A DNA stretch of 56,811 nt from a virus. Its lineage: Duplodnaviria > Heunggongvirae > Uroviricota > Caudoviricetes. Of this stretch, positions 5,655 to 33,011 are shown in pieces. Under the pieces are notes generated by a model. That model saw only the letters and a program-made list of their open reading frames with translations. It searched no databases and had not been told where the DNA came from. Numbering within the stretch: the stretch's first letter is position 1; the number at the start of each line of letters is the position of its first letter. The DNA lies in IMG/VR virus record IMGVR_UViG_2698536317_000003. One strand, 5' to 3'. The position numbers were made by a program, and so were the translations under genes.

Positions 5655-8600
5655 TTACCATGATCCGGTAATTCGTCCAATTTGGACGCGCAACCTACCG
5701 TTTCCATCCCTAACGGAAATGGTTGTATTTGTTAGTTTCATCGCGCCCTCACCACTTACAGAACCGTAGTTTTCAAATGTGCCTGATTTATCCAGCTTCC
5801 AGCCTGTGCTATTGGAAACATAGTTGTTTGATTGAATGTATGAACCAATTTTTGCATTAGTGATTGACGCGTCTTTAATAAACGCCTCGCGCACATACAT
5901 TGCACCGTTAGACACATAGAAAGGCGTTGTATATGTGCCGTTTGCTGCGGTCATCAATACGAAGCGGTCAACAAGGAAGATACACTGCGATTGAACGTTA
6001 GTACCGTTTCCAGTCAGCCCAAGCGACATACCTGTTGCATACTTCATGCCGTTGTTGTCGGTTGCCAGCTTGATGGAATACGTCGCATCGACATTACCTT
6101 TGAAGTCGGTTAACGCTTTTGACGTCGTTTCTATCGCTGTTGTGTTCCCGTTAACGGTCACTGTTAGCTGATCGATTTTGCTTGATAATGCCTCGTCAGC
6201 CGTTGCCATAGACTGTGACCATTCTGTAATACTTGAGTTTACGGAATCGAAAGACGCTGAGATCTGGACGAATTTTTCAGCGCTTGATGCTTCATGCGTA
6301 GAAAGCGCCGTTGATACCTCAGACACCTTCGAGTTAATCGTACTGGTAAGCGATGAGTTAAGGCTACTTATCGCGTCAGTGCGTGCCTTCGTTTCGTCTG
6401 CAATTGCCTTGTCAATACGGGTCACGTTGCTTGTAACTTTGCCATCAAGGGTTGAAATTGACGCATTCACGCCACTGATGGCTTGTGCTCTGGCGCTGGC
6501 CTCATCAGCAATCGCCTGGTCCAGTCTGCTAACTTCGGATTCAGTGTTGCTTTCGAGGGTGTTAATGCTCGCATTCACTCCACTGATAGCTTCGGTTCTT
6601 GCGCTGGTTTCGTTGGCAATAGCCTGATCCAAACGTTTAACGCTGGCGTCGGTTTTCTTGTCGAGCGCTGAAATGCTTGCGTTAACGTCGCTCACTGCCT
6701 GGCTGCGTGCGCTGGTTTCGTCGGCGATGGCCTGATCAAGGCGGGAAACACTCGCTTCGGTTTTCTTATCAAGATCCGTGATCGATGCTTTTACCACGCT
6801 AACCGCTTCCGCTGTAGCCTTTTTCTCTTCAGCGATAACATTGTCAATACGGTCAATTTGCGCGTTGGTTTCTTTGCGTCCTTTCTTGTATTGGGCAGTA
6901 AGAGTAACACGCGTGTTGGTTTGAGCGATTGAGTTGTTAATCAGAGCAATCGAGGCGTTTTGCAGGCTTGCTTTGGTCTGGCTTATTTCGTCGCTGTTCT
7001 TGTCAACGTTGTTTTCAACCTTACCCAGTTCGGCGCTGATTCCAGATATAGCCTGCGCACGGGCGCTTGACTCGTCAGCAATAGCCTGGTCCAAGCGTTT
7101 GACGCTGGCGTTTGTGTTACTTTCGAGCGTTGTTAAATCAGCTTTGACCTCTGTTATTGCGTCGCTTCTTGCCTGAGTTTCGTCAGATATTGCCTTATCG
7201 AGTCTGCTCACGCTGGCGTCGGTTTTGCTTTCAAGATTGCTTATTGAGGCATTAACGCCGCTGATTGCCTGCGCACGGGCGCTTGATTCGTCGGCAATTG
7301 CTTGATCAAGACGGTTCACGCTGGCGTCAGTTTTCTTGTCAAGATCAGCGATCGATGCGTTCACGTTATTAATTGCTTCTGCGCGGGCGCTTGATTCGTC
7401 TGCCACTGCGCGTTCCACGCTGGAGATCTGACCCTTAAGGTTGGAATCCATCGTGTTCATTTCTGCCGTGATGGTTTTCAGCGATTCAGCCGTGGCCCGC
7501 TTCTCTTCGGCAATAACGTTGTCGATGCTGTCAATCTGCGCGTTTGTTTCTGATTGCCATTTCTTGTACTGTGCAGTGAGCGTAACCCGCGTGTTGGTCT
7601 GCGCGAGAGAGTTATTAATCAGCGCCAAAGATGCGTTTTGCAGGCTTGCTTTTGCTTGCGCCAGTTCGCTGTCGATTCTTTCGCTGGATACCTCTAGCGA
7701 GTCAATCCTTACCTCATGTTGCCCAATACCATCGGTGTTTTCACCAACCTTTTTATAAAGATCTTCCGTCTCTTTTTTCAGCGTGTCAGTGTCAGCTTTT
7801 ATTTCACCTGTTTCTGTGATTAAGCTGTCAGTGTCAGTCCTCAATTCGTCAGTGATGTTTGTCAGGTTGTCAGTTGCAGTTTTTAGGTTGTCAGTAGCGT
7901 TTTTAAGGTCATTTGTGGCGCTTTCGATAAGGTCGGCACGGTCGCCAAGATCTTTAATGTCGCCAATCATGTCCTTGAACTGTTCTGACTCCATGACATC
8001 CTTCATCACGTAGTCGCTGATTTCGTCGAAGTTTTCAGTCGGTTTTCCTGATGCCTCAACGAAGTCTGACACACCGAAAGCGTTACGCGTGCGCACATAA
8101 ACGTAATATTTATGGCCCGTGTTCATGCCGCCAAAAGTCCATTGGTAGCCTCGCCCGGTGAATTGCGCCAAAGTTGTTACTTTTGACGGGTCAGTGATCT
8201 GATTTTCACCTGAGTAGTAAAACTCATATGCTGTATCAGTTGTCAGGGTTGTTTTGCTGATCGGATACACTGTTGCCTGGAAAACGCCAGGAACCCAATT
8301 AACACCAATCGGGGCGGCTGGCGCACCAATGACCAGATCCACAATACTTTCCGCACCCTTCATGCCAGTGTCATTACGCCCGCGAATACCAAGCGTGTAG
8401 CTGCCAGCGTCGAGGCCATAAAAATCATAGCGGTAGTTCGTGGTTTCATAAGTTGCCACTACACGCCCATCGGCGTTATATACGCGAATTTCAAAGGTCA
8501 GGCGATGCGTTGTTGTCTGTGTTTCCCACGTTGCGCGACATTGAACAGTTTCAGAACCAACATTTAACACCTTCAGGTTTTCGATGTTCGGCACGCGGAA

Positions 8601-23082: not shown

Positions 23083-24387
23083 TTAGAAATAAGTGTTAAA
23101 GTCTGGTACTTCGCCTTTTTTACCTTCGCTTGCTGCATTGGTTGCCATCGGCGCGGGTTTGCCCAGGGATTTAAACATCGCTTCTAACGCTTCACCGCTT
23201 AATGCGTTAGCAACAATTTCGCCGTGTACTTTTGCTACTGCGGCGCGTTTTTCTGCTACTTCTTTATTTGCGTTTGCTGCGATCTCTTCTTTGATCGCTT
23301 TCTGGTTGGTCTGCAATTCTTTTTGGTTGGTCTGTAATTCTTCAACGCTTGCCTGTACTGGTTTTAATGCCTCTGCTACTGCATTAGCGATATTAGCGGC
23401 TAAACCTTCGTTAATTTCTTTTACCAGTTCGGCGCGTTCTTCTTTGGTCAAAGGCATGGGATCGTCCTCCGATTTATTGGCCTTAATTTTTTCATTCAGG
23501 GAGAAAAGATTAGAAAGGTGTTCGGCGAACTGAGCGAACCATGATTTACTTTCCTCATTGGTTGCAAGCTCGCCATTATTGAGAATAATTTTATCAGCCT
23601 GTTTCTGGTAGTTGTATTTTTCCGCGTAATTTTTGTTGGTTGCAATTGTCACTTCTTTATCAGTGAAGTCCACAACATAGACATAATCGGCATCAGGAAG
23701 TAATTCACGCGCCGCTTCCGTCAGTTGTCTTTCAAGCGTGCGATAGCTGTTTTCTTTCATTGCCACAGCCATTAAAGGCTTCGCCTGGTCAGTGTTAACC
23801 ATCAGGCCAACGCCCTGCTCTGGCGATGCGGCTGGCGGTTCATGCAGTAAGATAGCGTCATGGTCGATCGACATGATTTTAACAACGCTATCAGCACCCT
23901 GGGCCTTCATCTCTTCAGTAGCTGGCATACGCTGACGATATACGGCTACGGATGACCAGATAGGATCTTTGCTTTCGCCTTTTTCCAGTGCTTCGAGTCG
24001 GCTTAGCAATTCGCGCCCCTGTTCTGAATGGCTGGCGGTTTCAACATCCACCCATTTTTCCACATAAACACGGTTGCCACGTAATTCAACATTTCTGTTC
24101 CATGCACCACAAAAGCCAATATTCAGACCTTCCGGGCTAAATGCGGAAACAAATTCACCGTCAACCGTAGGATGTCCCAGCGGTGCGAGCGTGCCTTCCA
24201 GAGATTGATAATTAGCAATGATTTCAGCTTCCGGGTAATATTCCCGATTCATAACGATATTGAAGGGCAATGTATATGACGGAACAACAATATGCTCACG
24301 CCCGTTATACGTTTCCCGGCGTATGGTGTTAGCGGTTAATTTGGTATTAACCTGAATCAATTCTTTATTCACGATTTTTACTCCCAA
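23083..24387 (-). CDS. Putative prohead protease / scaffolding protein
   Basis: 434-aa ORF between head-morphogenesis and decoration genes; C-terminal coiled coil with in-frame 7-aa duplication ELQTNQK. Confidence 0.45.
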   Translation of the reverse strand: MGVKIVNKELIQVNTKLTANTIRRETYNGREHIVVPSYTLPFNIVMNREYYPEAEIIANYQSLEGTLAPLGHPTVDGEFVSAFSPEGLNIGFCGAWNRNVELRGNRVYVEKWVDVETASHSEQGRELLSRLEALEKGESKDPIWSSVAVYRQRMPATEEMKAQGADSVVKIMSIDHDAILLHEPPAASPEQGVGLMVNTDQAKPLMAVAMKENSYRTLERQLTEAARELLPDADYVYVVDFTDKEVTIATNKNYAEKYNYQKQADKIILNNGELATNEESKSWFAQFAEHLSNLFSLNEKIKANKSEDDPMPLTKEERAELVKEINEGLAANIANAVAEALKPVQASVEELQTNQKELQTNQKAIKEEIAANANKEVAEKRAAVAKVHGEIVANALSGEALEAMFKSLGKPAPMATNAASEGKKGEVPDFNTYF

Positions 24388-25322
24388 TCTTCGCCATATT
24401 TAGCGTGCGCAACCTTATAGTTTTCTTGCGCCCGTTCTAATATTCGTTTGTTTAATATATTACCGTCTTCGTCAACTAATACGGTAATAGTGCTGCATTT
24501 GCAGTTAATTGAATTAGGGGATCTACTCCACCATTCGCGCTGCTCTTCTATGGTGTATGTTTTCCCGTGTCGCTGTGCGTGTGATAGCCTGGTAGTCGGT
24601 GACAATGCCGAAATGTGCATTTGCATAGTGCGCAAGTTAAGCTCATCCGATGCGGCTTCTGCCTCATCCATACGCGCTGTGCGTAACGCTGTGCATATTT
24701 CAGTACGGGCAATACGTTTGCACCTGTATAGCGGTAATTGCGTTTCCTGCTGCAATGTGCGCGCTATTTCTAGTGGGTTTAGGCCACGGGCCATGCCTTC
24801 GGTTAATCGGCGGGCCATATCCTTCTTGATCTGTGCGGTAAGCCCGCGCATCTCTTCAAATACACGGGTACGAACCAGGGCAAGGCGTGTGCGATATGTC
24901 TGACTGGTTAATACCGCAGACACTTCAGGGTAAGCCCTGGAATATGTGACTGACTGGTTAGCGAGGTTGGCATATTCCTGAGAAGTGCCGCGCTGATATG
25001 CCACCTTCACGTATTCCTGCCAGAACCAGAAGTTTTCCGGGTCTGTTAACTCGAATATTTCATCAATCATGTCGCTGGCGTCTTCCAGCAAATCATGTAA
25101 TTCGTCGATGTAGATCTGGAAGGTGTATTTTTTATTAACAGCCAGGGTATATTGTATTCTGTCCAGTATGGCGATATATGGATCGGCTACTTTCTTCAGG
25201 CAGGCTTTAAAACGCTTGATAGCACCAGACCTTAACTTCCCTGTCATGGTCGGGTCTTCGGTGTTAGATGGCATTATCGCGGCTGGAGGTATTCGCCTGA
25301 TTATCTTCTTCACCCTCATCAT
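24378..25322 (-). CDS. Head morphogenesis protein (SPP1 gp7 / Mu F-like)
   Basis: 314-aa ORF downstream of portal. Confidence 0.65.
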   Translation of the reverse strand: MMRVKKIIRRIPPAAIMPSNTEDPTMTGKLRSGAIKRFKACLKKVADPYIAILDRIQYTLAVNKKYTFQIYIDELHDLLEDASDMIDEIFELTDPENFWFWQEYVKVAYQRGTSQEYANLANQSVTYSRAYPEVSAVLTSQTYRTRLALVRTRVFEEMRGLTAQIKKDMARRLTEGMARGLNPLEIARTLQQETQLPLYRCKRIARTEICTALRTARMDEAEAASDELNLRTMQMHISALSPTTRLSHAQRHGKTYTIEEQREWWSRSPNSINCKCSTITVLVDEDGNILNKRILERAQENYKVAHAKYGEDWE

Positions 25323-26655
25323 CGTCCTCCTCTTCCGTTTCTACTTCACTGGCTGGGCCATCGTATCCGGCAGCCTCGCGGATCTCGTCACCGCTAAATA
25401 TTTCTTCACCAGTAGCCAGACAAGCCTGATTGATTTGTGCCATTTTGTCTGCGGCTTCCAGTAGCTCTGCTTTGGTCATGGCGTTAAGGTCGTCCCATAG
25501 CACTGATACATCTACTGGCATACTGATAAGGCGTAGATCTGCCATCTTGCGGAACAGATCTTCAATCTCGCCACCGATTTCCTCCCTGCGGGTCATGCAG
25601 CGGCTGTTGAAGTAACGCAGGTCTTCGGTTGATGCACGCTCTCCCTGTTGGTTCCCAACCAGGATGCGGGTTGGAATATCAACACCAGCGGCGGCGGTTT
25701 GCAGGTTTACATCATAGGTTGATGACGGGTCAGACACGGCAGTAACCAGCGGGCTTACTGTCGCACCCTGTAACGCCATCATTACGTCATTACCCTTATT
25801 CATTTCAGCCGTAGCCTCATTGAATCTTTCGCGTAACTCTGTAACGTCGCAATCGTATGTTGCAGCCAGGGAACGGAAGTCAATCTCTTTATCGAACGAA
25901 ATAGCAAGCTGACGCGCTGCGTTTTTCAGGAATGATTCACCACTACCGCCTTCCACTTTTTCCAGTGATACGAATGCGTTGTAGGAAGGTTCAAGGAAAG
26001 CGATGACATCATCAGAATAGTCGCCAAAGATGAATATGCGGTCAGGGTGGATCTTTCTGGCAATGGTCTTACTGTTAATGCGTTCTTTGTATTCCCACCA
26101 TGTCGGCAGGCCATAATTTTCACTGTCCGGGTCTTCTTCGAACTCCTTCGGTGTAAGAGCGCCAGCCCACACAGGGGTAAATTTGGCAATACCTACGCCT
26201 TTTGTCACTGGCTGATCCCACGGCTGGTTATCTCTGACATGAATCAACAGACCAGCATAACGACCAATGAGGCGGCGGCGATCACATTCAGCAACAGTGC
26301 GCCAAAATCTGTTGTTAAATTTCTTCTTGATTTCTCTTTCCCACGGTGTTTCCTTTTTCGCTTTCTCGTCTTCAGTTCCCTCAATCATCTTTGGCTTGGT
26401 GCGCCAGCAAGTCGTAACAATCTTTTCTACAGCACCGTGAGCGATGCCGCCGCGTCTGTACAGTTTGTATAGATCGTGGTACGTGATCTCTTCTTTGAAT
26501 CCGTATTCACTCCACGCAGCATCACGTTTGGCATCTATCCCCATAGTGAATGGGTTGGCTGCGGCATAGCGGGCGTAGGCCGCCTGGCGTTGTGACAAGG
26601 CAGCATTAACCGCCAATTCTAAATTGGATGGCATAATGTTTACTCCTGAATACAT
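25264..26655 (-). CDS. Portal protein
   Basis: 463-aa ORF after large terminase, acidic C-terminus; likely true start at internal ATG 26634 after AGGAG. Confidence 0.8.
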   Translation of the reverse strand: MYSGVNIMPSNLELAVNAALSQRQAAYARYAAANPFTMGIDAKRDAAWSEYGFKEEITYHDLYKLYRRGGIAHGAVEKIVTTCWRTKPKMIEGTEDEKAKKETPWEREIKKKFNNRFWRTVAECDRRRLIGRYAGLLIHVRDNQPWDQPVTKGVGIAKFTPVWAGALTPKEFEEDPDSENYGLPTWWEYKERINSKTIARKIHPDRIFIFGDYSDDVIAFLEPSYNAFVSLEKVEGGSGESFLKNAARQLAISFDKEIDFRSLAATYDCDVTELRERFNEATAEMNKGNDVMMALQGATVSPLVTAVSDPSSTYDVNLQTAAAGVDIPTRILVGNQQGERASTEDLRYFNSRCMTRREEIGGEIEDLFRKMADLRLISMPVDVSVLWDDLNAMTKAELLEAADKMAQINQACLATGEEIFSGDEIREAAGYDGPASEVETEEEDDDEGEEDNQANTSSRDNAI

Positions 26656-26712: not shown

Positions 26713-28197
26713 TTAAAATCCGCGCAGGCGCTTCGGTAACATGAGGCCTATCGCCTGTGGCTGGCTTAGTTCGGTAATACCCCATACCATTGCGTCCATA
26801 CGGTCAGGGGATTTTTTAGCGGTGGCTGGCACATATTCCATCATTTGATTTTCCAGCGTGTACAGGCTGCCAGTGTGGGCCACCCTTCCCTGCGCATATA
26901 GTGCCGATATTGGCTCTGCACGGGCGAATTTACCTTTGCTTGCGTGCACCTTAACAATGCGGCCTTTGAATCCGGCATTGCGTAGCGTGGCCTCTGCCAT
27001 GTCACCGCCCTGGTTGGTTTCGATAACCATCGCGTCAGCTTCATGGATGTCATATGCTTTCATGGATGCTTGCGCCCAGTCGTTAGGCGACATGCGGCCT
27101 GAATAGTCACCATCAACAGAATACTGAGCATTCTTACCGCCACCATATGCGGAACACGCCACGATCCCCGTTTCGTCAGATTCATCAGATGACGTTGTCG
27201 CCGGGTCGATGGCTATTACCGTGCGGATCTTGTCCTGCGTTATCTGCATCCGGTGCGCTGCGGTTATCATCGCTTCAGTCCACAATGCACCCTCTTCGTC
27301 GAATTTACGCGGGCGCTGCATGTACTGGGCCTCAAATGACCGCCTGTGTGCTTTCAGTCCAGCTTCATGGGCGTCATTGTGCTTTTTAGGCCATAGCCAG
27401 CCGTCTGGCAGGTTGTGAGGAATAGGGATAGCGAACTCGTTTTCAGGATACAAATCCCGGTAGTCAACGCTGTTGTCGATCTTCACTGGCAGGTTCAGGT
27501 GATACCATTTCTCCCCGCTTCCACCACGTAGCAGGTAGCCGGACAAATCATCGTAGTGGATGCGCTGCATGATGACGATAACAGGCGTCGTTTGCACTGC
27601 CAGACGTGAAGCAAGCGTGTCGTTATAGTTAGTGTTTACCTGCTTTCTCACCACGTCAGAGTAAGCGTCGGCGGGCTTTAATGGGTCGTCGATGATTAAC
27701 GCGCCGTTAAATCCTGGTTCCATATACCCCGCACGGAACCCAGTAACCTGGCCAAGCGATGAAGTTGCATACACGCCGCCACCGTATTCAGTCCACCACA
27801 TCGATTTTGAGTTTGCATCGTTGCGGATCTTCATGGGCCACATTGCCTGATACTCAGGCGTACAGATCATGTTTCTTACAGTTGAGGAGTTGAGTAGCGC
27901 CAGGTTGTTGGAATAGGAAACGTGAAGGAATCGTGTGCGGGGATTTATTGCGAGGGACCGCGCCATCATATTGATAGTAGCGATCATGGTTTTGCCGTAC
28001 CCTGGGGGGATGTTGATGATGAGTCGGGTTATCTCACCATTGACAACGCGTTGTAGTGCGTCGCGGATAGCTAAATGATGGCCTGAGATTAACATCTTCG
28101 TTCCGTTCGCTTGCTTGTAAAAGTAGCGATTGAAAAACAGGCCATCGTTTTCACATTTGGACTGAATAACTCGTTCTTTGATTGTCAGCATAATCAC
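26713..28197 (-). CDS. Terminase large subunit
   Basis: 494-aa ORF with Walker A PPGYGKT and C-terminal nuclease-like region. Confidence 0.9.
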   Translation of the reverse strand: MIMLTIKERVIQSKCENDGLFFNRYFYKQANGTKMLISGHHLAIRDALQRVVNGEITRLIINIPPGYGKTMIATINMMARSLAINPRTRFLHVSYSNNLALLNSSTVRNMICTPEYQAMWPMKIRNDANSKSMWWTEYGGGVYATSSLGQVTGFRAGYMEPGFNGALIIDDPLKPADAYSDVVRKQVNTNYNDTLASRLAVQTTPVIVIMQRIHYDDLSGYLLRGGSGEKWYHLNLPVKIDNSVDYRDLYPENEFAIPIPHNLPDGWLWPKKHNDAHEAGLKAHRRSFEAQYMQRPRKFDEEGALWTEAMITAAHRMQITQDKIRTVIAIDPATTSSDESDETGIVACSAYGGGKNAQYSVDGDYSGRMSPNDWAQASMKAYDIHEADAMVIETNQGGDMAEATLRNAGFKGRIVKVHASKGKFARAEPISALYAQGRVAHTGSLYTLENQMMEYVPATAKKSPDRMDAMVWGITELSQPQAIGLMLPKRLRGF

Positions 28198-28679
28198 ACC
28201 TCATCTTCTACTTCCTGAACGATGCGGGCGATTTCTTCTTTCGTTACTTCCACCTGGACGGGTGCTTCTTCCTTGTTACCTACAATCTCCTGTGTAACGC
28301 GTTCACCATATTTGCGCGGTTGCAGTTTTGCCAATAGCCATTTACGGGTTTCAATCATCAGTTGATGTCTGCGGCATTGGTCTTTATCGGTGTTCTCCGC
28401 TGCGTCGGCTATATCGATAATCTCATCAGCCAACACCTCAAATCCGATCTCCTTCGCGCGCGCGTACATGGTGGAAAACTCGGGCACATCACGGAACCAT
28501 TTGAGGATTGTTGAACGGTTCGGCATGTCAGGCATCTTCGAGATTTTGTTAATACTCTGACCGTCCGCCACCAGCTCACAGATCTCTAATGCCTTTTCTT
28601 CGGTATAGCCATGCGGACGGCCCGTCTTTTTGGCTGCTGGCTTTTTATCGTCAGCCTTTGCCTTTTTCGTGCGGGCCAT
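28194..28679 (-). CDS. Terminase small subunit
   Basis: 161-aa ORF with N-terminal basic/HTH region, overlapping large terminase start. Confidence 0.7.
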   Translation of the reverse strand: MARTKKAKADDKKPAAKKTGRPHGYTEEKALEICELVADGQSINKISKMPDMPNRSTILKWFRDVPEFSTMYARAKEIGFEVLADEIIDIADAAENTDKDQCRRHQLMIETRKWLLAKLQPRKYGERVTQEIVGNKEEAPVQVEVTKEEIARIVQEVEDEV

Positions 28680-28689
28680 AATTCACCTC

Positions 28690-28773
28690 TTAAAATTTAT
28701 TCACTATATATAAACACTCAATTAATGTTGCGAAGTATATTGATACACCCAACAAGCTGGATAGATCTTTCAT
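28690..28773 (-). CDS. Micro-ORF a (27 aa), MKDLSSLLGVSIYFATLIECLYIVNKF
   Basis: AAGGAAA RBS; last member of array before small terminase. Confidence 0.35.
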   Translation of the reverse strand: MKDLSSLLGVSIYFATLIECLYIVNKF

Positions 28774-28783
28774 TTTTTCCTTA

Positions 28784-28849
28784 TTACGATAAAGCCACCA
28801 TAGTGATAACAATCGCAACAACCAGGAAAAAGAAATCAAGCCATTTCAT
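28784..28849 (-). CDS. Micro-ORF b (21 aa) single-TM peptide MKWLDFFFLVVAIVITMVALS
   Basis: AGGAG RBS 7 nt upstream. Confidence 0.4.
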   Translation of the reverse strand: MKWLDFFFLVVAIVITMVALS

Positions 28850-28866
28850 TTTTTAACTCCTGCGAT

Positions 28867-28938
28867 TCAGTTAACACTTAAAAGCACCGCAACGATGACG
28901 ATCACTATAATCATGCAAAAGAAGTCTGCCTCTCTCAT
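28867..28938 (-). CDS. Micro-ORF c (23 aa) single-TM peptide MREADFFCMIIVIVIVAVLLSVN
   Basis: ATGA start/stop overlap with ORF d. Confidence 0.4.
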   Translation of the reverse strand: MREADFFCMIIVIVIVAVLLSVN

Positions 28939-29015
28939 CTTTTTAACCCTCGATAAAAATCAACGGCAATAACCGCAATAACAGCCACCAGCAATAGCAT
29001 TTCGTATGCGTTCAT
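28935..29015 (-). CDS. Micro-ORF d (26 aa) single-TM peptide MNAYEMLLLVAVIAVIAVDFYRGLKR
   Basis: ATGA overlap with ORF e. Confidence 0.4.
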   Translation of the reverse strand: MNAYEMLLLVAVIAVIAVDFYRGLKR

Positions 29016-29110
29016 TTGATGCTACCCATAACAAGGCCGATGATGATAATTATGGCGATAATGCCCAACATCATCCCGCACATAATCGCCAGTAATTCGA
29101 ATATATCCAT
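29012..29110 (-). CDS. Micro-ORF e (32 aa) single-TM peptide MDIFELLAIMCGMMLGIIAIIIIIGLVMGSIK
   Basis: AGGTGA RBS; internal ATG of 67-aa track ORF. Confidence 0.4.
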   Translation of the reverse strand: MDIFELLAIMCGMMLGIIAIIIIIGLVMGSIK

Positions 29111-29118
29111 GCCGTCAC

Positions 29119-29193
29119 CTATACAACATTCTTCCACCAGAAATAGATAATGACGGCGACCAACGACCACCAGATGAGATCGTAAATACCCAT
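29119..29193 (-). CDS. Micro-ORF f2 (24 aa) Trp-rich single-TM peptide MGIYDLIWWSLVAVIIYFWWKNVV
   Basis: GAAGG RBS. Confidence 0.4.
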   Translation of the reverse strand: MGIYDLIWWSLVAVIIYFWWKNVV

Positions 29194-29204
29194 TGCGAAT
29201 ACCT

Positions 29205-29279
29205 TCAGCTTTCAATGAATATCATGATCGCCAGCCATACAGCGACGCAGGCAGAAAGTATAATTAGCGGGTCAATCAT
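29205..29279 (-). CDS. Micro-ORF f1 (24 aa) single-TM peptide MIDPLIILSACVAVWLAIMIFIES
   Basis: GGGGTGA RBS. Confidence 0.4.
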   Translation of the reverse strand: MIDPLIILSACVAVWLAIMIFIES

Positions 29280-29292
29280 ATTGTCACCCCAT

Positions 29293-29394
29293 TTAATACT
29301 TGCTCATTACGGTTATCAGTACGGCTATAATAAAACCCACCAGAAATGCAGAAATACCGATTAATCCGGCAATGATGTAAGCGTCCATAATCAT
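29293..29394 (-). CDS. Micro-ORF h (33 aa) single-TM peptide MIMDAYIIAGLIGISAFLVGFIIAVLITVMSKY
   Basis: Start shares one nucleotide with stop of ORF i (TAATG). Confidence 0.4.
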   Translation of the reverse strand: MIMDAYIIAGLIGISAFLVGFIIAVLITVMSKY

Positions 29395-29456
29395 TACTTC
29401 CACAACAAAAACAATATTACAGCCGCCGCCATTCCGATAAATAAATAAGCGTCCAT
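29394..29456 (-). CDS. Micro-ORF i (20 aa) single-TM peptide MDAYLFIGMAAAVILFLLWK
   Basis: GAGGGTG RBS inside the 3-prime end of the HExxH gene. Confidence 0.4.
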   Translation of the reverse strand: MDAYLFIGMAAAVILFLLWK

Positions 29457-29458
29457 AA

Positions 29459-30010
29459 TCACCCTCGTTTAAAGCTCATCACACGCGGTACAAGCGCTTC
29501 TTTTGCTTTAGGCTTACGTTTGCCTTTCTTAGTGGGTTTTTCTTCTTCCTTCGGGTGTTCTGCCTGTTCTAACTGATCAAGTGTCTTCTCCACTACTTCA
29601 GCCGCCTGCATTGCTGCAACCTCCGCTTCGTTTGATTCAGCCAAGATCGGGAAGAATGCATCAAACATGCGCCCAATCAGGTAAGCATAAGTCTCGTTTG
29701 CGGGGTGGCTGTCATCAGTGGTAGCCAGCACACCGACATCACTTAAACAGTGAAAGGTAGCGTGGGCCACTTCATGGACCAGCGTGCCTAATTCATGGTC
29801 AAATACAGCAACAACATAGAAGTTACCGCCGCCTTCACCAGTACAGGTTAACGTTAATCCACCAGCAAGCTCGAAGCCGGGATCGATTGGAATTCCTGCC
29901 TTTTCGCAAAACTCGTAGAACATGTCGCGGGTCGGGCAGAAGAAAACTGTTGTATGCTCAAAAAGCGGAATCTTGAATTGAGGCAACTTAATGCCTTTAG
30001 CCTTAGCCAT
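29459..30010 (-). CDS. HExxH-motif protein (putative zinc metallopeptidase-like), 183 aa, basic C-terminal tail
   Basis: Motif LVHEVAHATFH; located directly downstream of Rz/Rz1. Confidence 0.5.
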   Translation of the reverse strand: MAKAKGIKLPQFKIPLFEHTTVFFCPTRDMFYEFCEKAGIPIDPGFELAGGLTLTCTGEGGGNFYVVAVFDHELGTLVHEVAHATFHCLSDVGVLATTDDSHPANETYAYLIGRMFDAFFPILAESNEAEVAAMQAAEVVEKTLDQLEQAEHPKEEEKPTKKGKRKPKAKEALVPRVMSFKRG

Positions 30011-30346
30011 CAGAATATTCCTCTATCCTGAAAAATATAACCCCCGCAAAACTGGACACCGCAGGGAGTGAAAACAGCTATAAAACACTGAAAACGGCGC
30101 TGCGTGAGTACCGTTTCCAGAATTTTATAAAACTGGACCTGCTCAACATCTCTGGTAAACAGATCCGAACGCTCTTCCTACGCTTGGCAGGTGAGTAATG
30201 GCGCTTTCTTCTACCCAGGTAGCGCCTGACCTGTTAATGGGACTGTTGATCCGGTATTACGTGTTTTTGAATTTCCGCCGTCGCTCGCGGGAAGGATTGG
30301 CCCGGTTATGGCTGGCTAGCAGAAACGGCGACACGTCCACGCGCTG

Positions 30347-30817
30347 TTATTCTTTGCGTAAGCACTGCGTTTTGATGTAGCCCTGAAGCGCGGTTATCTT
30401 CGCGTCTTTCTCTTTTAGTTGTTCTCTGAGGGATAAATAAGATTGTCGAGCAGAGGCATCAAGTTCGCAGGTGGCTCCATCAATGCGGCTGGCGGTTCCG
30501 GCGGGGTCGGACACTCGCACGGGTATTGCGTTGACGCGCAACCGGATAGTACCGTTATCAATGCCAGTGCGCAGATCGGCAATGTCAGATCTGATAGCTT
30601 TAATCTCATCGTGATACCTCTTATCAAGTTTTGACAGTTCGGCGTTTCGCTCCTTCATCTGCTGAATAGTGTTACTTGCCGTTTTCAGTGCGCCTTTCGT
30701 TACCGTGACTTCTTCCTGCAACCTTGCCGCCTCACCCTGGTAATAACATGTTACGGCGGTCAGTCCGGCAATAATGCAAACAACAACGGCGATGATTAAC
30801 GTCTTCACCTTGTCCAT
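30347..30817 (-). CDS. i-spanin (Rz)
   Basis: N-terminal TM plus periplasmic coiled coil; resembles recalled lambda Rz; contains embedded Rz1. Confidence 0.8.
30415..30609 (-). CDS. o-spanin (Rz1), lipoprotein embedded in Rz in another frame
   Basis: MRLKL...VLSGCAS lipobox and proline-rich [23 protein letters not shown] resembling lambda Rz1. Confidence 0.75.
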   Translation of the reverse strand: MRLKLSDLTLPICALALITVLSGCASTQYPCECPTPPEPPAALMEPPANLMPLLDNLIYPSENN

Positions 30818-31296
30818 TTCTCACCCCATTCGCAAACGGCATATTCAACCTCGCGGCGGTTTACCAGGCCTTGCCACTTCTTACCGCCAGCGTATACCCA
30901 GCGTTTAAGCTGTGCGCACGCTTCTGATTTCTTGCCGTCATTGAGTAGCTTTAATAAGGTTGATGTTTTGAAGTTGGTTGCGCCTACGTTATAGGCGAAT
31001 GAATAAAGTGCTGCGCGGGTAAAATCTGATATTTCGACTTTAATATAGGGATCGATAGCTTTTGCGGTTTTATGCAGATCTTTGTTTAACAAAGCATCGC
31101 ATTCTGATTGCGTGTAAGTTTTACCAAGCATGATGTCTTTTCCGGTGTGACCATGACAAACAGTCCACACACCAACAACATCACGATAAGGATCGTACTC
31201 CACGCCCTCTAATGGCTTAATCATCACCGCCGCAATTGCTATCGCCCCACCAGCCGCCGCCGCAACAATCTTGTTTTTCAGCGATTGGCTAATCAT
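30805..31296 (-). CDS. SAR endolysin (phage lysozyme with N-terminal signal-anchor-release domain)
   Basis: N-terminal Gly/Ala-rich TM followed by E...D...T lysozyme catalytic motif. Confidence 0.85.
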
Positions 31297-31497
31297 TTAC
31301 TTGTTCCCCATTCGCGCGTCGTGTTCCTCTTGCGCTCGCTTGTTCTCCTGTGATTTAAAGTAATAATTAACGGCAAATGTGCCTACGGTTGATAAAATAC
31401 CCACAAAGACGGCAATGTCATTGATGGTTATCGCGCCGAAAAAAGCAGTTACGGCCCCAGTCACATACGCGCACGCCTCCCGTATTCTGTCGAACAT
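31297..31497 (-). CDS. Holin (small two-TM, pinholin-like)
   Basis: 66-aa ORF with two hydrophobic helices and charged C-terminus, immediately upstream of endolysin. Confidence 0.75.
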   Translation of the reverse strand: MFDRIREACAYVTGAVTAFFGAITINDIAVFVGILSTVGTFAVNYYFKSQENKRAQEEHDARMGNK

Positions 31498-32204: not shown

Positions 32205-32405
32205 TCAATCATTTTTGCGCTCCTTAATGGCTCGCATGATGTTAATACGCATAGCGTCACTGAATGCGTATATCGTAATGAAAGGCCAGAAGACTAGCTC
32301 GAACCAAATAATGCCGTCACTATCAACAGCTTTCTGAAAAGCGCCCATTAAAATGACACCAGCCAGGTAAATTATAACTACCGCAACAATAATGCATTCA
32401 ATCAT
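32205..32405 (-). CDS. Small membrane protein (MIECIIVAVVIIYLAGVILMGAF...), full-length copy
   Basis: Starts inside 227-bp duplication copy 1 and extends into unique sequence. Confidence 0.4.
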   Translation of the reverse strand: MIECIIVAVVIIYLAGVILMGAFQKAVDSDGIIWFELVFWPFITIYAFSDAMRINIMRAIKERKND

Positions 32406-32529
32406 CTTCACCCCCAAGATCATGATAAATATCGTTAGGGTCTTCACCATGTTCCTCGCAAAAACGCTCAAATAGCGCCCAATTTTCAGAAAGAAACATG
32501 ATTAATAAATTTTTATACCACTCTTCCAT
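32398..32529 (-). CDS. Acidic small protein MEEWYKN...GGEDD (43 aa), copy 1
   Basis: GAGGA RBS; identical copy at 32625-32756. Confidence 0.4.
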   Translation of the reverse strand: MEEWYKNLLIMFLSENWALFERFCEEHGEDPNDIYHDLGGEDD

Positions 32530-32539
32530 TTAATCATCC

Positions 32540-32632
32540 TCAGTCACTATCAACAGCTTTCTGAAAAGCGCCCATTAAAATGACACCAGCCAGGTAAATT
32601 ATAACTACCGCAACAATAATGCATTCAATCAT
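32540..32632 (-). CDS. Truncated small membrane peptide (30 aa) created by the duplication junction
   Basis: Same N-terminus as 32205-32405 ORF, stop created at repeat junction. Confidence 0.3.
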   Translation of the reverse strand: MIECIIVAVVIIYLAGVILMGAFQKAVDSD

Positions 32633-32756
32633 CTTCACCCCCAAGATCATGATAAATATCGTTAGGGTCTTCACCATGTTCCTCGCAAAAACGCTCAAAT
32701 AGCGCCCAATTTTCAGAAAGAAACATGATTAATAAATTTTTATACCACTCTTCCAT
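32625..32756 (-). CDS. Acidic small protein MEEWYKN...GGEDD (43 aa), copy 2
   Basis: Identical to copy 1; start abuts stop of upstream ORF. Confidence 0.4.
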   Translation of the reverse strand: MEEWYKNLLIMFLSENWALFERFCEEHGEDPNDIYHDLGGEDD

Positions 32757-33011
32757 TTAATCATCCTCATCGTCTTCATGTTCAGCCAGGAACTCATCAA
32801 CCACGCGGCAAGTCACTGGCGGGATGTATTCGAAATCATCAGAATCAAGATCAAGCGTCCGGCTGTCGCCGTCATCGTCCAGCGTATTCATCCCTAACTC
32901 ACCGAAAGGGCCATACCCAATATGGCCCAGGTATTCGCATCCAGTAGTAAAGCCAGGGTATTCGCCTTTGCACCAGATCTTGTATAGCTTACTTGATGCG
33001 CTCAATTTCAA
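32757..33011 (-). CDS. Hypothetical protein (84 aa, acidic C-terminus)
   Basis: ORF in small-gene block. Confidence 0.35.
   Translation of the reverse strand: MKLSASSKLYKIWCKGEYPGFTTGCEYLGHIGYGPFGELGMNTLDDDGDSRTLDLDSDDFEYIPPVTCRVVDEFLAEHEDDEDD

Follow-up and report, generated by a model that had tools for sequence, protein, structure and literature searches.

The IMG/VR record IMGVR_UViG_2698536317_000003, a 56,811-nucleotide (nt) stretch of Caudoviricetes DNA (hereafter, the window), encodes on its minus strand, between the lysis genes and the terminase genes, a protein of 183 amino acids (aa) that contains the sequence LVHEVAHATFH at residues 77-87 and, within it, an HExxH motif at residues 79-83. 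A first-pass annotation, made from the sequence alone, took this product (hereafter, the HExxH protein) for a zinc metallopeptidase with a basic C-terminal tail and suggested that it might process the peptides encoded by an adjacent array of micro-open reading frames (micro-ORFs). The locus raises the questions of whether this protein is a peptidase at all and, if so, what it would act upon. By sequence comparison, the HExxH protein is a member of an existing, functionally blank family, phrog_1365/HkcC, the members of which, judging by conservation and predicted structure, are very probably catalytic zinc metallopeptidases. The role that we favor is that of a late accessory enzyme probably aimed at the host or at competing phages, whereas the proposed link to the micro-peptide array did not hold up.

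Family membership and putative active site

The gene occupies positions 29459-30010, including the stop codon, and starts with an ATG; its Shine-Dalgarno sequence, AGAGGA (30019-30024), is located 8 nt 5' of the start codon and is conserved in phages mEp021 and mEp013. Both the motif and the basic C-terminus were confirmed from the ORF listing and the sequence, with 12 Lys or Arg residues among the last 30 (KEEEKPTKKGKRKPKAKEALVPRVMSFKRG). The window represents a phage or prophage of the recently described mEpimmI group of coliphages (PMC11893012), the relatives of phage mEp021. At the nucleotide level, 28700-30400 shares 86-89% identity with the corresponding regions of mEp021, mEp010, mEp013, mEp044, mEp515, mEp554 and MagusPhagus, and the HExxH gene, the homolog of mEp021 gp49, is present in all 7 sequenced phages of the mEpimmI group. 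Furthermore, it was found in 31 of the 5,426 complete E. coli genomes, annotated every time as a "hypothetical protein". The ORF is a real gene under strong purifying selection: across 33 distinct IMG/VR alleles, the ratio of nonsynonymous to synonymous substitution rates (dN/dS) is 0.07 for the whole gene, and 0.06, 0.11 and 0.10 for residues 1-128, the linker that follows them and the C-terminal tail, respectively (dS 0.43-0.58).

The HExxH protein matches the profile of phrog_1365, a PHROGs family of unknown function, over residues 1-131 (profile positions 3-124 of 127; E=1.7e-27), and the same model matches Orf-129 (6e-45) and HkcC (1.4e-39). Hypothetical proteins encoded by mEp021, mEp010 and MagusPhagus share 81-86% identity with it, and tblastn searches of phage genomes showed about 41% identity to ST64T Orf-129, epsilon34 gp70 and PS3, and about 31% identity to HK620 HkcC and to an ORF that is unannotated in the P22-pbi record (AF527608). 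The phrog_1365 members HkcC of P22 and HK620, ST64T Orf-129, epsilon34 gp70 and mEp021 gp49 are true homologs of the window protein (31-86% identity over residues 1-125), with the same invariant residues of an HExxH...NE..Y pattern and similar accessory positions in late operons. The classical members consist of the bare domain (120-130 aa), whereas in the window protein and in its mEpimmI relatives the C-terminus is longer by 55 aa, which make up an acidic helix and a basic tail, and the gene is followed by the micro-ORF array. An exhaustive search with a profile hidden Markov model over 1.84 billion representatives, with clusters defined at 50% identity, yielded 1,042 clusters of relatives at E<=1e-3, of which 221 reached E<=1e-10. 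The majority of the 1,042 clusters are stand-alone proteins of 115-130 aa that cover the catalytic domain alone. The close relatives are prophage genes of Enterobacterales, for example, Pantoea, Kluyvera, Citrobacter, Serratia, Mixta and Salmonella, and there are almost no family members in plasmid records. hkcC has been described as a gene of unknown function in the "ant moron" of P22 (PMC2629481; PMC4837284), and a literature search on hkcC, phrog_1365, MPTase-PolyVal and phage metalloprotease anti-defense found no functional study.

The evidence for an enzyme comes from four invariant residues and from the predicted fold. In an alignment of 136 family representatives that are 21-45% identical to the HExxH protein, H79 and H83 are present in all 136 sequences and E80 in 135. 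Equally universal (136 of 136) is E106, which is part of an N-E-x-[FY]-C-Y motif and follows H83 at a spacing of 23 residues. The HExxH columns are invariant in a 126-sequence alignment as well, and the motif is present in 144 of the 150 top family matches, 5 of the 6 exceptions being truncated or frameshifted fragments. Among the other residues of the region, N105 is found in 95 of the 136 representatives and Y110, one helical turn past E106, in 132; G51, F70 and G93, along with Y110, are nearly invariant across the family alignment.

The AlphaFold2 model of residues 1-128 (29627-30010), built on the 126-sequence alignment, was obtained with high confidence (predicted local distance difference test score, pLDDT, 94.1; predicted template modeling score, pTM, 0.88) and includes strands at residues 11-13, 21-25, 51-58 and 63-69, and helices at 28-38, 44-48, 74-91 and 104-126. 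The order of these elements, a backing helix, a three-stranded beta-sheet, the HExxH helix and a helix bearing the glutamate (Glu helix), agrees with the definition of the zincin core given by Iyer et al. (2017; PMC5512222). The H-E-V-A-H pentapeptide (codons 79-83; 29762-29776) falls on helix 74-91, and E106 (29693-29695), within the sequence N-E-T-Y, on the start of helix 104-126. Two histidines and a general base on one helix combined with a glutamate on the next one constitute, at the level of sequence, the gluzincin signature, with H79, H83 and E106 as the putative zinc ligands and E80 as the putative general base. Together with the bare-domain relatives, the model points to residues 1-128 as a minimal, gluzincin-like catalytic domain. 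Thus, the peptidase assignment of the first-pass annotation withstood examination with respect to both the conservation of the motif among homologs and the predicted fold.

A profile search against the sequences from PDB retrieved zincins only, the best match being the marginal one to myroilysin (E=0.0065; profile positions 4-111). A phmmer search of the PDB sequences with the HExxH protein itself and a Foldseek search of PDB with the predicted model returned no match. We conclude that the family appears to be a distinct, unclassified group of minimal gluzincin-type zincins without a close solved relative.

Comparison with known metallopeptidases

The HExxH protein presumably resembles the minigluzincins of roughly 100 aa. 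Among the gluzincins (MEROPS clan MA(E)), the nearest solved structure that can be named is M3 oligopeptidase A (PDB 4ka8), with the proviso that Foldseek matched the model to no PDB entry. The zincin-like MPTase domains found in the polyvalent proteins of phages and plasmids, among them the C-terminal domain of ArdC (PMC5512222; Pfam MPTase-PolyVal), are similar to the window protein in their minimal core and mobile-element setting but, unlike the solo domain of the window, are parts of polyvalent proteins. Assignment to this group (PF18818) was rejected: an hhalign comparison of the family profile with R388 ArdC gave a probability of 10% over 32 columns, and, of the 43 Pfam families with weak matches to the relatives, the 25 best-represented do not include MPTase-PolyVal. 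One relative (P0115) is labeled "PolyVal Metallopeptidase superfamily domain" in nr, which is an automated label.

The Pfam family that the relatives most often match weakly is SprT-like (PF10263), with sub-threshold matches in 33 of the 126 relatives (best E=1e-4). The SprT-like, Spartan and Wss1 proteases are likewise built around a small HExxH domain, and the basic tail of the window protein recalls their DNA-binding regions; however, the third putative ligand in the window protein is Glu rather than His, and the protein has no zinc ribbon. This assignment was dismissed as well, given that the window protein does not match PF10263 at E<=1, that no third His is conserved among the 136 representatives and that hhalign against E. 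coli SprT (YggI) gave a probability of 4%. The metzincins (astacin and myroilysin; HExxHxxGxxH) do not fit either: position +3 is Phe in 101 of the 136 representatives, positions +5 and +6 are Ile/Leu, and there is no third His. ImmA/IrrE (Peptidase_M78), found in prophages and integrative and conjugative elements, is another small cytoplasmic protease with an HExxH+E arrangement encoded on temperate elements, but the window gene belongs to the late operon instead of the immunity region; among 16 relatives, a single one matches Peptidase_M78 (E=0.099), and there is no adjacent gene for a helix-turn-helix repressor, the neighbors being Rz, the micro-ORFs and the small terminase subunit gene (TerS). 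A comparison of five family members with the known anti-phage defense components in PADLOC gave 0 families at E<=1.

Genomic setting and the C-terminal extension

On the minus strand of the window, the genes for holin (31297-31497), endolysin (30805-31296) and Rz with the embedded Rz1 (30347-30817) are followed by the HExxH gene, the array of micro-ORFs encoding single transmembrane (TM) segments (about 28690-29462), TerS (28194-28679), the large terminase subunit gene (TerL; 26713-28197) and the portal gene (25264-26655). The first-pass annotation put the HExxH gene immediately downstream of Rz/Rz1, which is inexact because a conserved, structured spacer of 336 nt (30011-30346) intervenes. 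In the minus strand of 30025-30135, RNAfold predicts two strong hairpins (-36.9 kcal/mol; z=-4.8 against 200 shuffles). These conserved hairpins (30031-30135) are nearly invariant in sequence among four phages, and the second one (30041-30067), together with a U-tract (30031-30040), resembles an intrinsic terminator; the annotations of mEp021 and mEp013 include terminators at the corresponding site. An Rfam search over 28600-30500 gave no match. Because a sigma-70 promoter scan of the spacer detected no minus-strand promoter upstream of the HExxH gene, independent, moron-type expression is unsupported. The spacer as a whole shows a mean column identity of 93% among the four phages, and pairwise identity over 30231-30350 is 0.93-0.96 in 38 alleles; a 60-aa ORF is present on the opposite strand (30198-30380), and its counterpart is annotated as mEp013_65.

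The order Rz - HExxH - micro-ORF array - TerS is found in all 47 mEpimmI-type IMG/VR loci. In the loci of the Orf-129 type, the gene occupies the same slot between lysis and terminase genes, often flanked by homologs of DUF2560 (orf-118) and orf-134, and in some of these it abuts TerS, with a gap of as little as 6 nt (6-9 nt). Among 71 non-mEpimmI IMG/VR loci, which differ widely in terminase and portal types, a packaging gene is located downstream on the same strand in 62, at a median distance of 1.15 kb, and a lysis gene is located upstream in 48. One distant locus has the arrangement TerS - HExxH - TerL - portal-like gene, and in another distant context, two ParB_N genes, an ATPase, a thioredoxin and a Tad2-like gene precede the HExxH gene, with TerL and portal genes further downstream. 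The HkcC-type gene has a different location, the ant moron of P22/HK620, with gene 16/sieA on one side and mnt on the other. The genomes of ST-32, ST-35, ST160, UAB_Phi20 and SE1 each contain two matches to the query, an Orf-129-type gene before the terminase and an HkcC-type gene in the ant moron, so that paralogs co-reside in one phage. Overall, the packaging module is the most constant neighbor of the family, which behaves as an accessory late gene. The earlier description of the position as a slot for lysis accessory or moron genes is fair for the window, but across lineages the terminase module is a more constant companion of the gene than the lysis cassette.

In the mEpimmI proteins, the catalytic domain is extended by an acidic helical linker of variable length (residues 129-158; 29537-29626), which continues the Glu helix, and by a polybasic tail (residues 159-183; 29462-29536; ..KKGKRKPKAKEALVPRVMSFKRG) with a net charge of about +9. 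In the full-length model, residues 103-151 form one helix and residues 155-183 are disordered (pLDDT below 50). Among 32 distinct mEpimmI proteins, the linker varies between alleles by insertions or deletions of 4-14 aa (for example, EQAEKATDAAEQAV), and the tail is nearly invariant in 31; with a dN/dS of 0.10 at a dS of 0.43, it is conserved at the protein level. The tail is kept in the relative P0115 despite an overall identity of 63%, and four distant members (P0132, P0170, P0217, P0255) display independent arrangements of a helical linker and a basic tail. In the mEp013-type loci (L189 3000-3506; P0112, P0113, P0117), the HExxH gene has an inserted gene for an HNH endonuclease at its 3' end, and the linker and tail are swapped for a second, different but still basic, type of tail (..KRKAKTKEPPKVGKYIIAGQSRYAMG; ..KYIIAGQSRYAMG). 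One allele, from IMGVR_UViG_3300007790_000022 (L007 2846-3280), stops after about residue 144 (…VVEQAL) and lacks the basic tail. Among the window ORFs of at least 50 aa, only the HExxH gene has such a basic tail ending in [FYW]xxG. Targeting to the capsid through a scaffold-like or shared C-terminal tail was discarded, no other window protein sharing the tail. When examined as a potential MinD-like membrane-targeting helix, the tail had a hydrophobic moment no better than that of shuffled sequences, a test that likewise failed to separate the tail of MinD itself. The combination of a catalytic domain, a variable stalk and a short, conserved terminal peptide suggests an address tag, and the mEpimmI tail probably is a targeting element, with DNA, an anionic membrane or a partner protein as the candidate destinations.

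Several features at greater distance were noted along the way. In one of the distant loci (L087), a gene with a Pfam domain of the Tad2-like (anti-Thoeris) type (5729-6004) lies immediately upstream of the family member, preceded by genes for thioredoxin, an ABC-type ATPase and two ParB_N proteins; the ParB_N/ATPase block recurs in loci L086, L088 and L094. The head module of the window encodes a 434-aa protein (23083-24387, minus strand), which matches only phrog_760, of unknown function, and is flanked by the MuF-like head morphogenesis gene on one side and by the decoration protein on the other. Positions 32316-32769 comprise a perfect tandem duplication of 227 nt (32316-32542 and 32543-32769, 100% identical), which doubles, on the minus strand, an acidic ORF of 43 aa as well as part of a TM ORF of 88 aa.

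Possible roles of the HExxH protein

The best explanation of these observations, and in our estimate a probable one, is that the HExxH protein is a late, cytoplasmic, trans-acting zinc metallopeptidase with an accessory function directed at the host or at competing phages. It would be a soluble enzyme with a single minimal domain, cytoplasmic because it contains no signal peptide or TM segment. One Zn2+ ion would be held by H79 and H83 from the active-site helix and E106 from the next helix, E80 would serve as general base, activating the zinc-bound water, the substrate peptide would dock in an extended conformation along the beta-strand preceding the HExxH helix, and Y110 would probably contribute to transition state stabilization. 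The gene would be transcribed with the late genes through read-through of the upstream terminator-like hairpins. The enzyme would then cleave a protein substrate in trans, an accessory and non-structural function, most likely a host protein or a protein of a competing phage, late in infection. The mEpimmI lineage appears to have added the acidic helical stalk and the conserved polybasic peptide to this domain, presumably for targeting. Several points weigh against this reading. The role directed at the host or competitors is argued only from position and analogy, and the repeated presence next to terminase genes might instead point to a role in packaging or morphogenesis. The terminator-like hairpins lie directly upstream of a gene for which late expression is deduced from gene order. 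In addition, the protein could be placed in no curated peptidase family: the scans of Pfam and NCBIfam yielded no family above threshold for it or for its relatives, and its own sequence had no Pfam match at E<=1.

A protease of packaging or morphogenesis comes next in our ranking, although we consider it rather unlikely. Such an enzyme would process the terminase, the portal or a head protein, or would clear proteins bound or cross-linked to concatemeric DNA, with the basic tail as a tether to DNA. This possibility draws on the terminase adjacency, which spans unrelated head modules (the 62 of 71 loci, the spacing of 6-9 nt before TerS and the TerS-HExxH-TerL order described above), on the recurrence of polybasic tails in distant members, on the weak SprT-like matches of the 33 relatives, and on the fact that no dedicated prohead protease was recognized among the scanned head genes of the window. 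However, the ant moron, where the HkcC paralog is encoded, is far from the terminase genes, a basic tail is missing from most of the family, and the similarity to E. coli SprT is at the 4% level in hhalign. The mEp021 homolog, gp49, was absent from the 16 virion proteins found by mass spectrometry in that phage, and accessory genes generally have a hotspot at the junction that precedes the terminase genes. Moreover, P22-like phages assemble their heads without proteolysis, and the immI region is dispensable, which also counts against a role in packaging. A prohead protease role, in particular, was rejected, the HExxH gene being absent from the head module and P22-like phages needing no such enzyme. 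The gene's position downstream of holin, endolysin and Rz/Rz1 in mEpimmI, along with the upstream lysis genes in 48 of the 71 other loci, could instead indicate an accessory lysis enzyme that acts on holin, spanin or envelope proteins, tuning or completing lysis. We regard this as unlikely: distant members without nearby lysis genes keep their terminase neighbors, HkcC lies outside any lysis cassette, neither a signal peptide nor a TM segment is present in the protein, and the conserved terminator-like spacer separates Rz from the HExxH gene. Finally, the HExxH sequence could be fortuitous or the protein a catalytically dead scaffold, in line with the lack of curated family matches and of a Foldseek match in PDB; yet the two histidines, the glutamate between them and the distal glutamate do not vary across more than 130 representatives with identities of 21-45%, and the N-terminal domain evolves at a dN/dS of 0.06, which makes the non-enzymatic alternative very unlikely.

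The other suggestion of the first-pass annotation, a partnership of the protease with the downstream single-TM micro-peptides (whether it would mature them, degrade them or act in some other way), was the one prompted by the gene junction itself. There, the reported overlap between the HExxH stop codon and the ribosome-binding site of the first micro-ORF is genuine. There are 2 nt between the TGA (29459-29461) and the ATG (29454-29456) of this micro-ORF (MDAYLFIGMAAAVILFLLWK; 29394-29456), the translation of which is coupled to the HExxH stop, and the GAGGG-TGA sequence at the end of the HExxH gene serves as its Shine-Dalgarno; an alternative GTG start would overlap the stop as GTGA. We treat this micro-ORF as genomic context and not as a demonstrated partner. 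The array of the window consists of 7-9 micro-ORFs of 20-35 aa (28690-29462, minus strand), and the HExxH gene and the array occur together in all 47 mEpimmI loci (L006-L052), with 3-12 micro-ORFs in a gap of 319-1155 nt. The encoded peptides fall into the families MDAYxIAGLIG.., MIDPLIILSACVAVWLAIMIFIES, MNAYEMLLLVAV.. and MKWLDFFFL.., with MKELFDWLEVLTYCASFVACVYIINKY as the last one, and the stop/start junction TGATTATG recurs within the array. Beyond this co-occurrence, a partnership could draw on the polybasic tail, which could sit at the inner face of the membrane, and on a fusion: in one E. coli assembly (GCA_044910115.1; L190 2030-2050), a +1 G insertion in a G-run (CGAGGGTGA -> CGGGGGGTGA) abolishes the stop and joins the HExxH protein (P0004) in frame to the first TM micro-ORF, resulting in a 209-aa product. 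This fusion, however, is known from a single case and involves a homopolymer run, its probable origin being mutation or a homopolymer error, and the second long form (P0005) is an out-of-frame read-through, so that we did not accept the long forms as Rosetta-stone evidence. The co-occurrence is limited to one lineage, in which it cannot be separated from shared descent. There are no TM micro-ORFs in the slot in any of the 8 Orf-129-type loci with a locatable downstream TerS, and they are also missing from the distant contexts; in mEp013, the protease gene and the array have the HNH endonuclease gene between them. The family as a whole is therefore not tied to the array. Furthermore, the copy number of the micro-ORFs varies while the protease is constant, the peptides are hardly longer than a TM helix and have neither a leader nor a cleavage motif, and the hydrophobic-moment test of the tail was uninformative. 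A maturation protease of the kind associated with ribosomally synthesized and post-translationally modified peptides was rejected on the same grounds, namely, confinement of the array to the mEpimmI lineage and peptides that are bare TM helices without a leader/core layout, and the absence of a signal peptide or TM segment in the HExxH protein likewise speaks against processing. Altogether, cooperation with the array seems improbable.

The conserved tail invites a more specific, and in our view doubtful, proposal, that the family is a targeted late protease whose site of action is set by a C-terminal address peptide, being either tethered to DNA or, in mEpimmI, recruited to the membrane. In the DNA-tethered version, by analogy with the logic of SprT and Wss1, the protease could strip bound or cross-linked proteins off concatemeric DNA ahead of the terminase, which would explain the persistent terminase adjacency together with the basic tails. 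In the membrane version, the protease could act at the inner membrane face in cooperation with the variable micro-peptide array. If true, either of these tail-targeted versions would amount to a new functional class of phage late genes.

What is mildly new here is the explicit assignment of a gluzincin active site to the HkcC/Orf-129 family, along with the size of the family, its terminase-proximal positional pattern and the mEpimmI-specific tail. For the window, the outcome consists mainly in annotating the gene correctly, and the proposed link to the micro-peptide array is removed. The minimal scaffold of the family, at roughly 120 aa, is without a solved structure. A gene that was blank can now be read as encoding a minimal, almost certainly catalytic zinc protease with a defined putative active site (H79/E80/H83/E106), an assignment that is directly testable. 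This family is present in textbook phages (P22 hkcC and ST64T orf-129) and in about 1,000 sequence clusters, and small trans-acting phage proteases are candidate effectors of host takeover or counter-defense.

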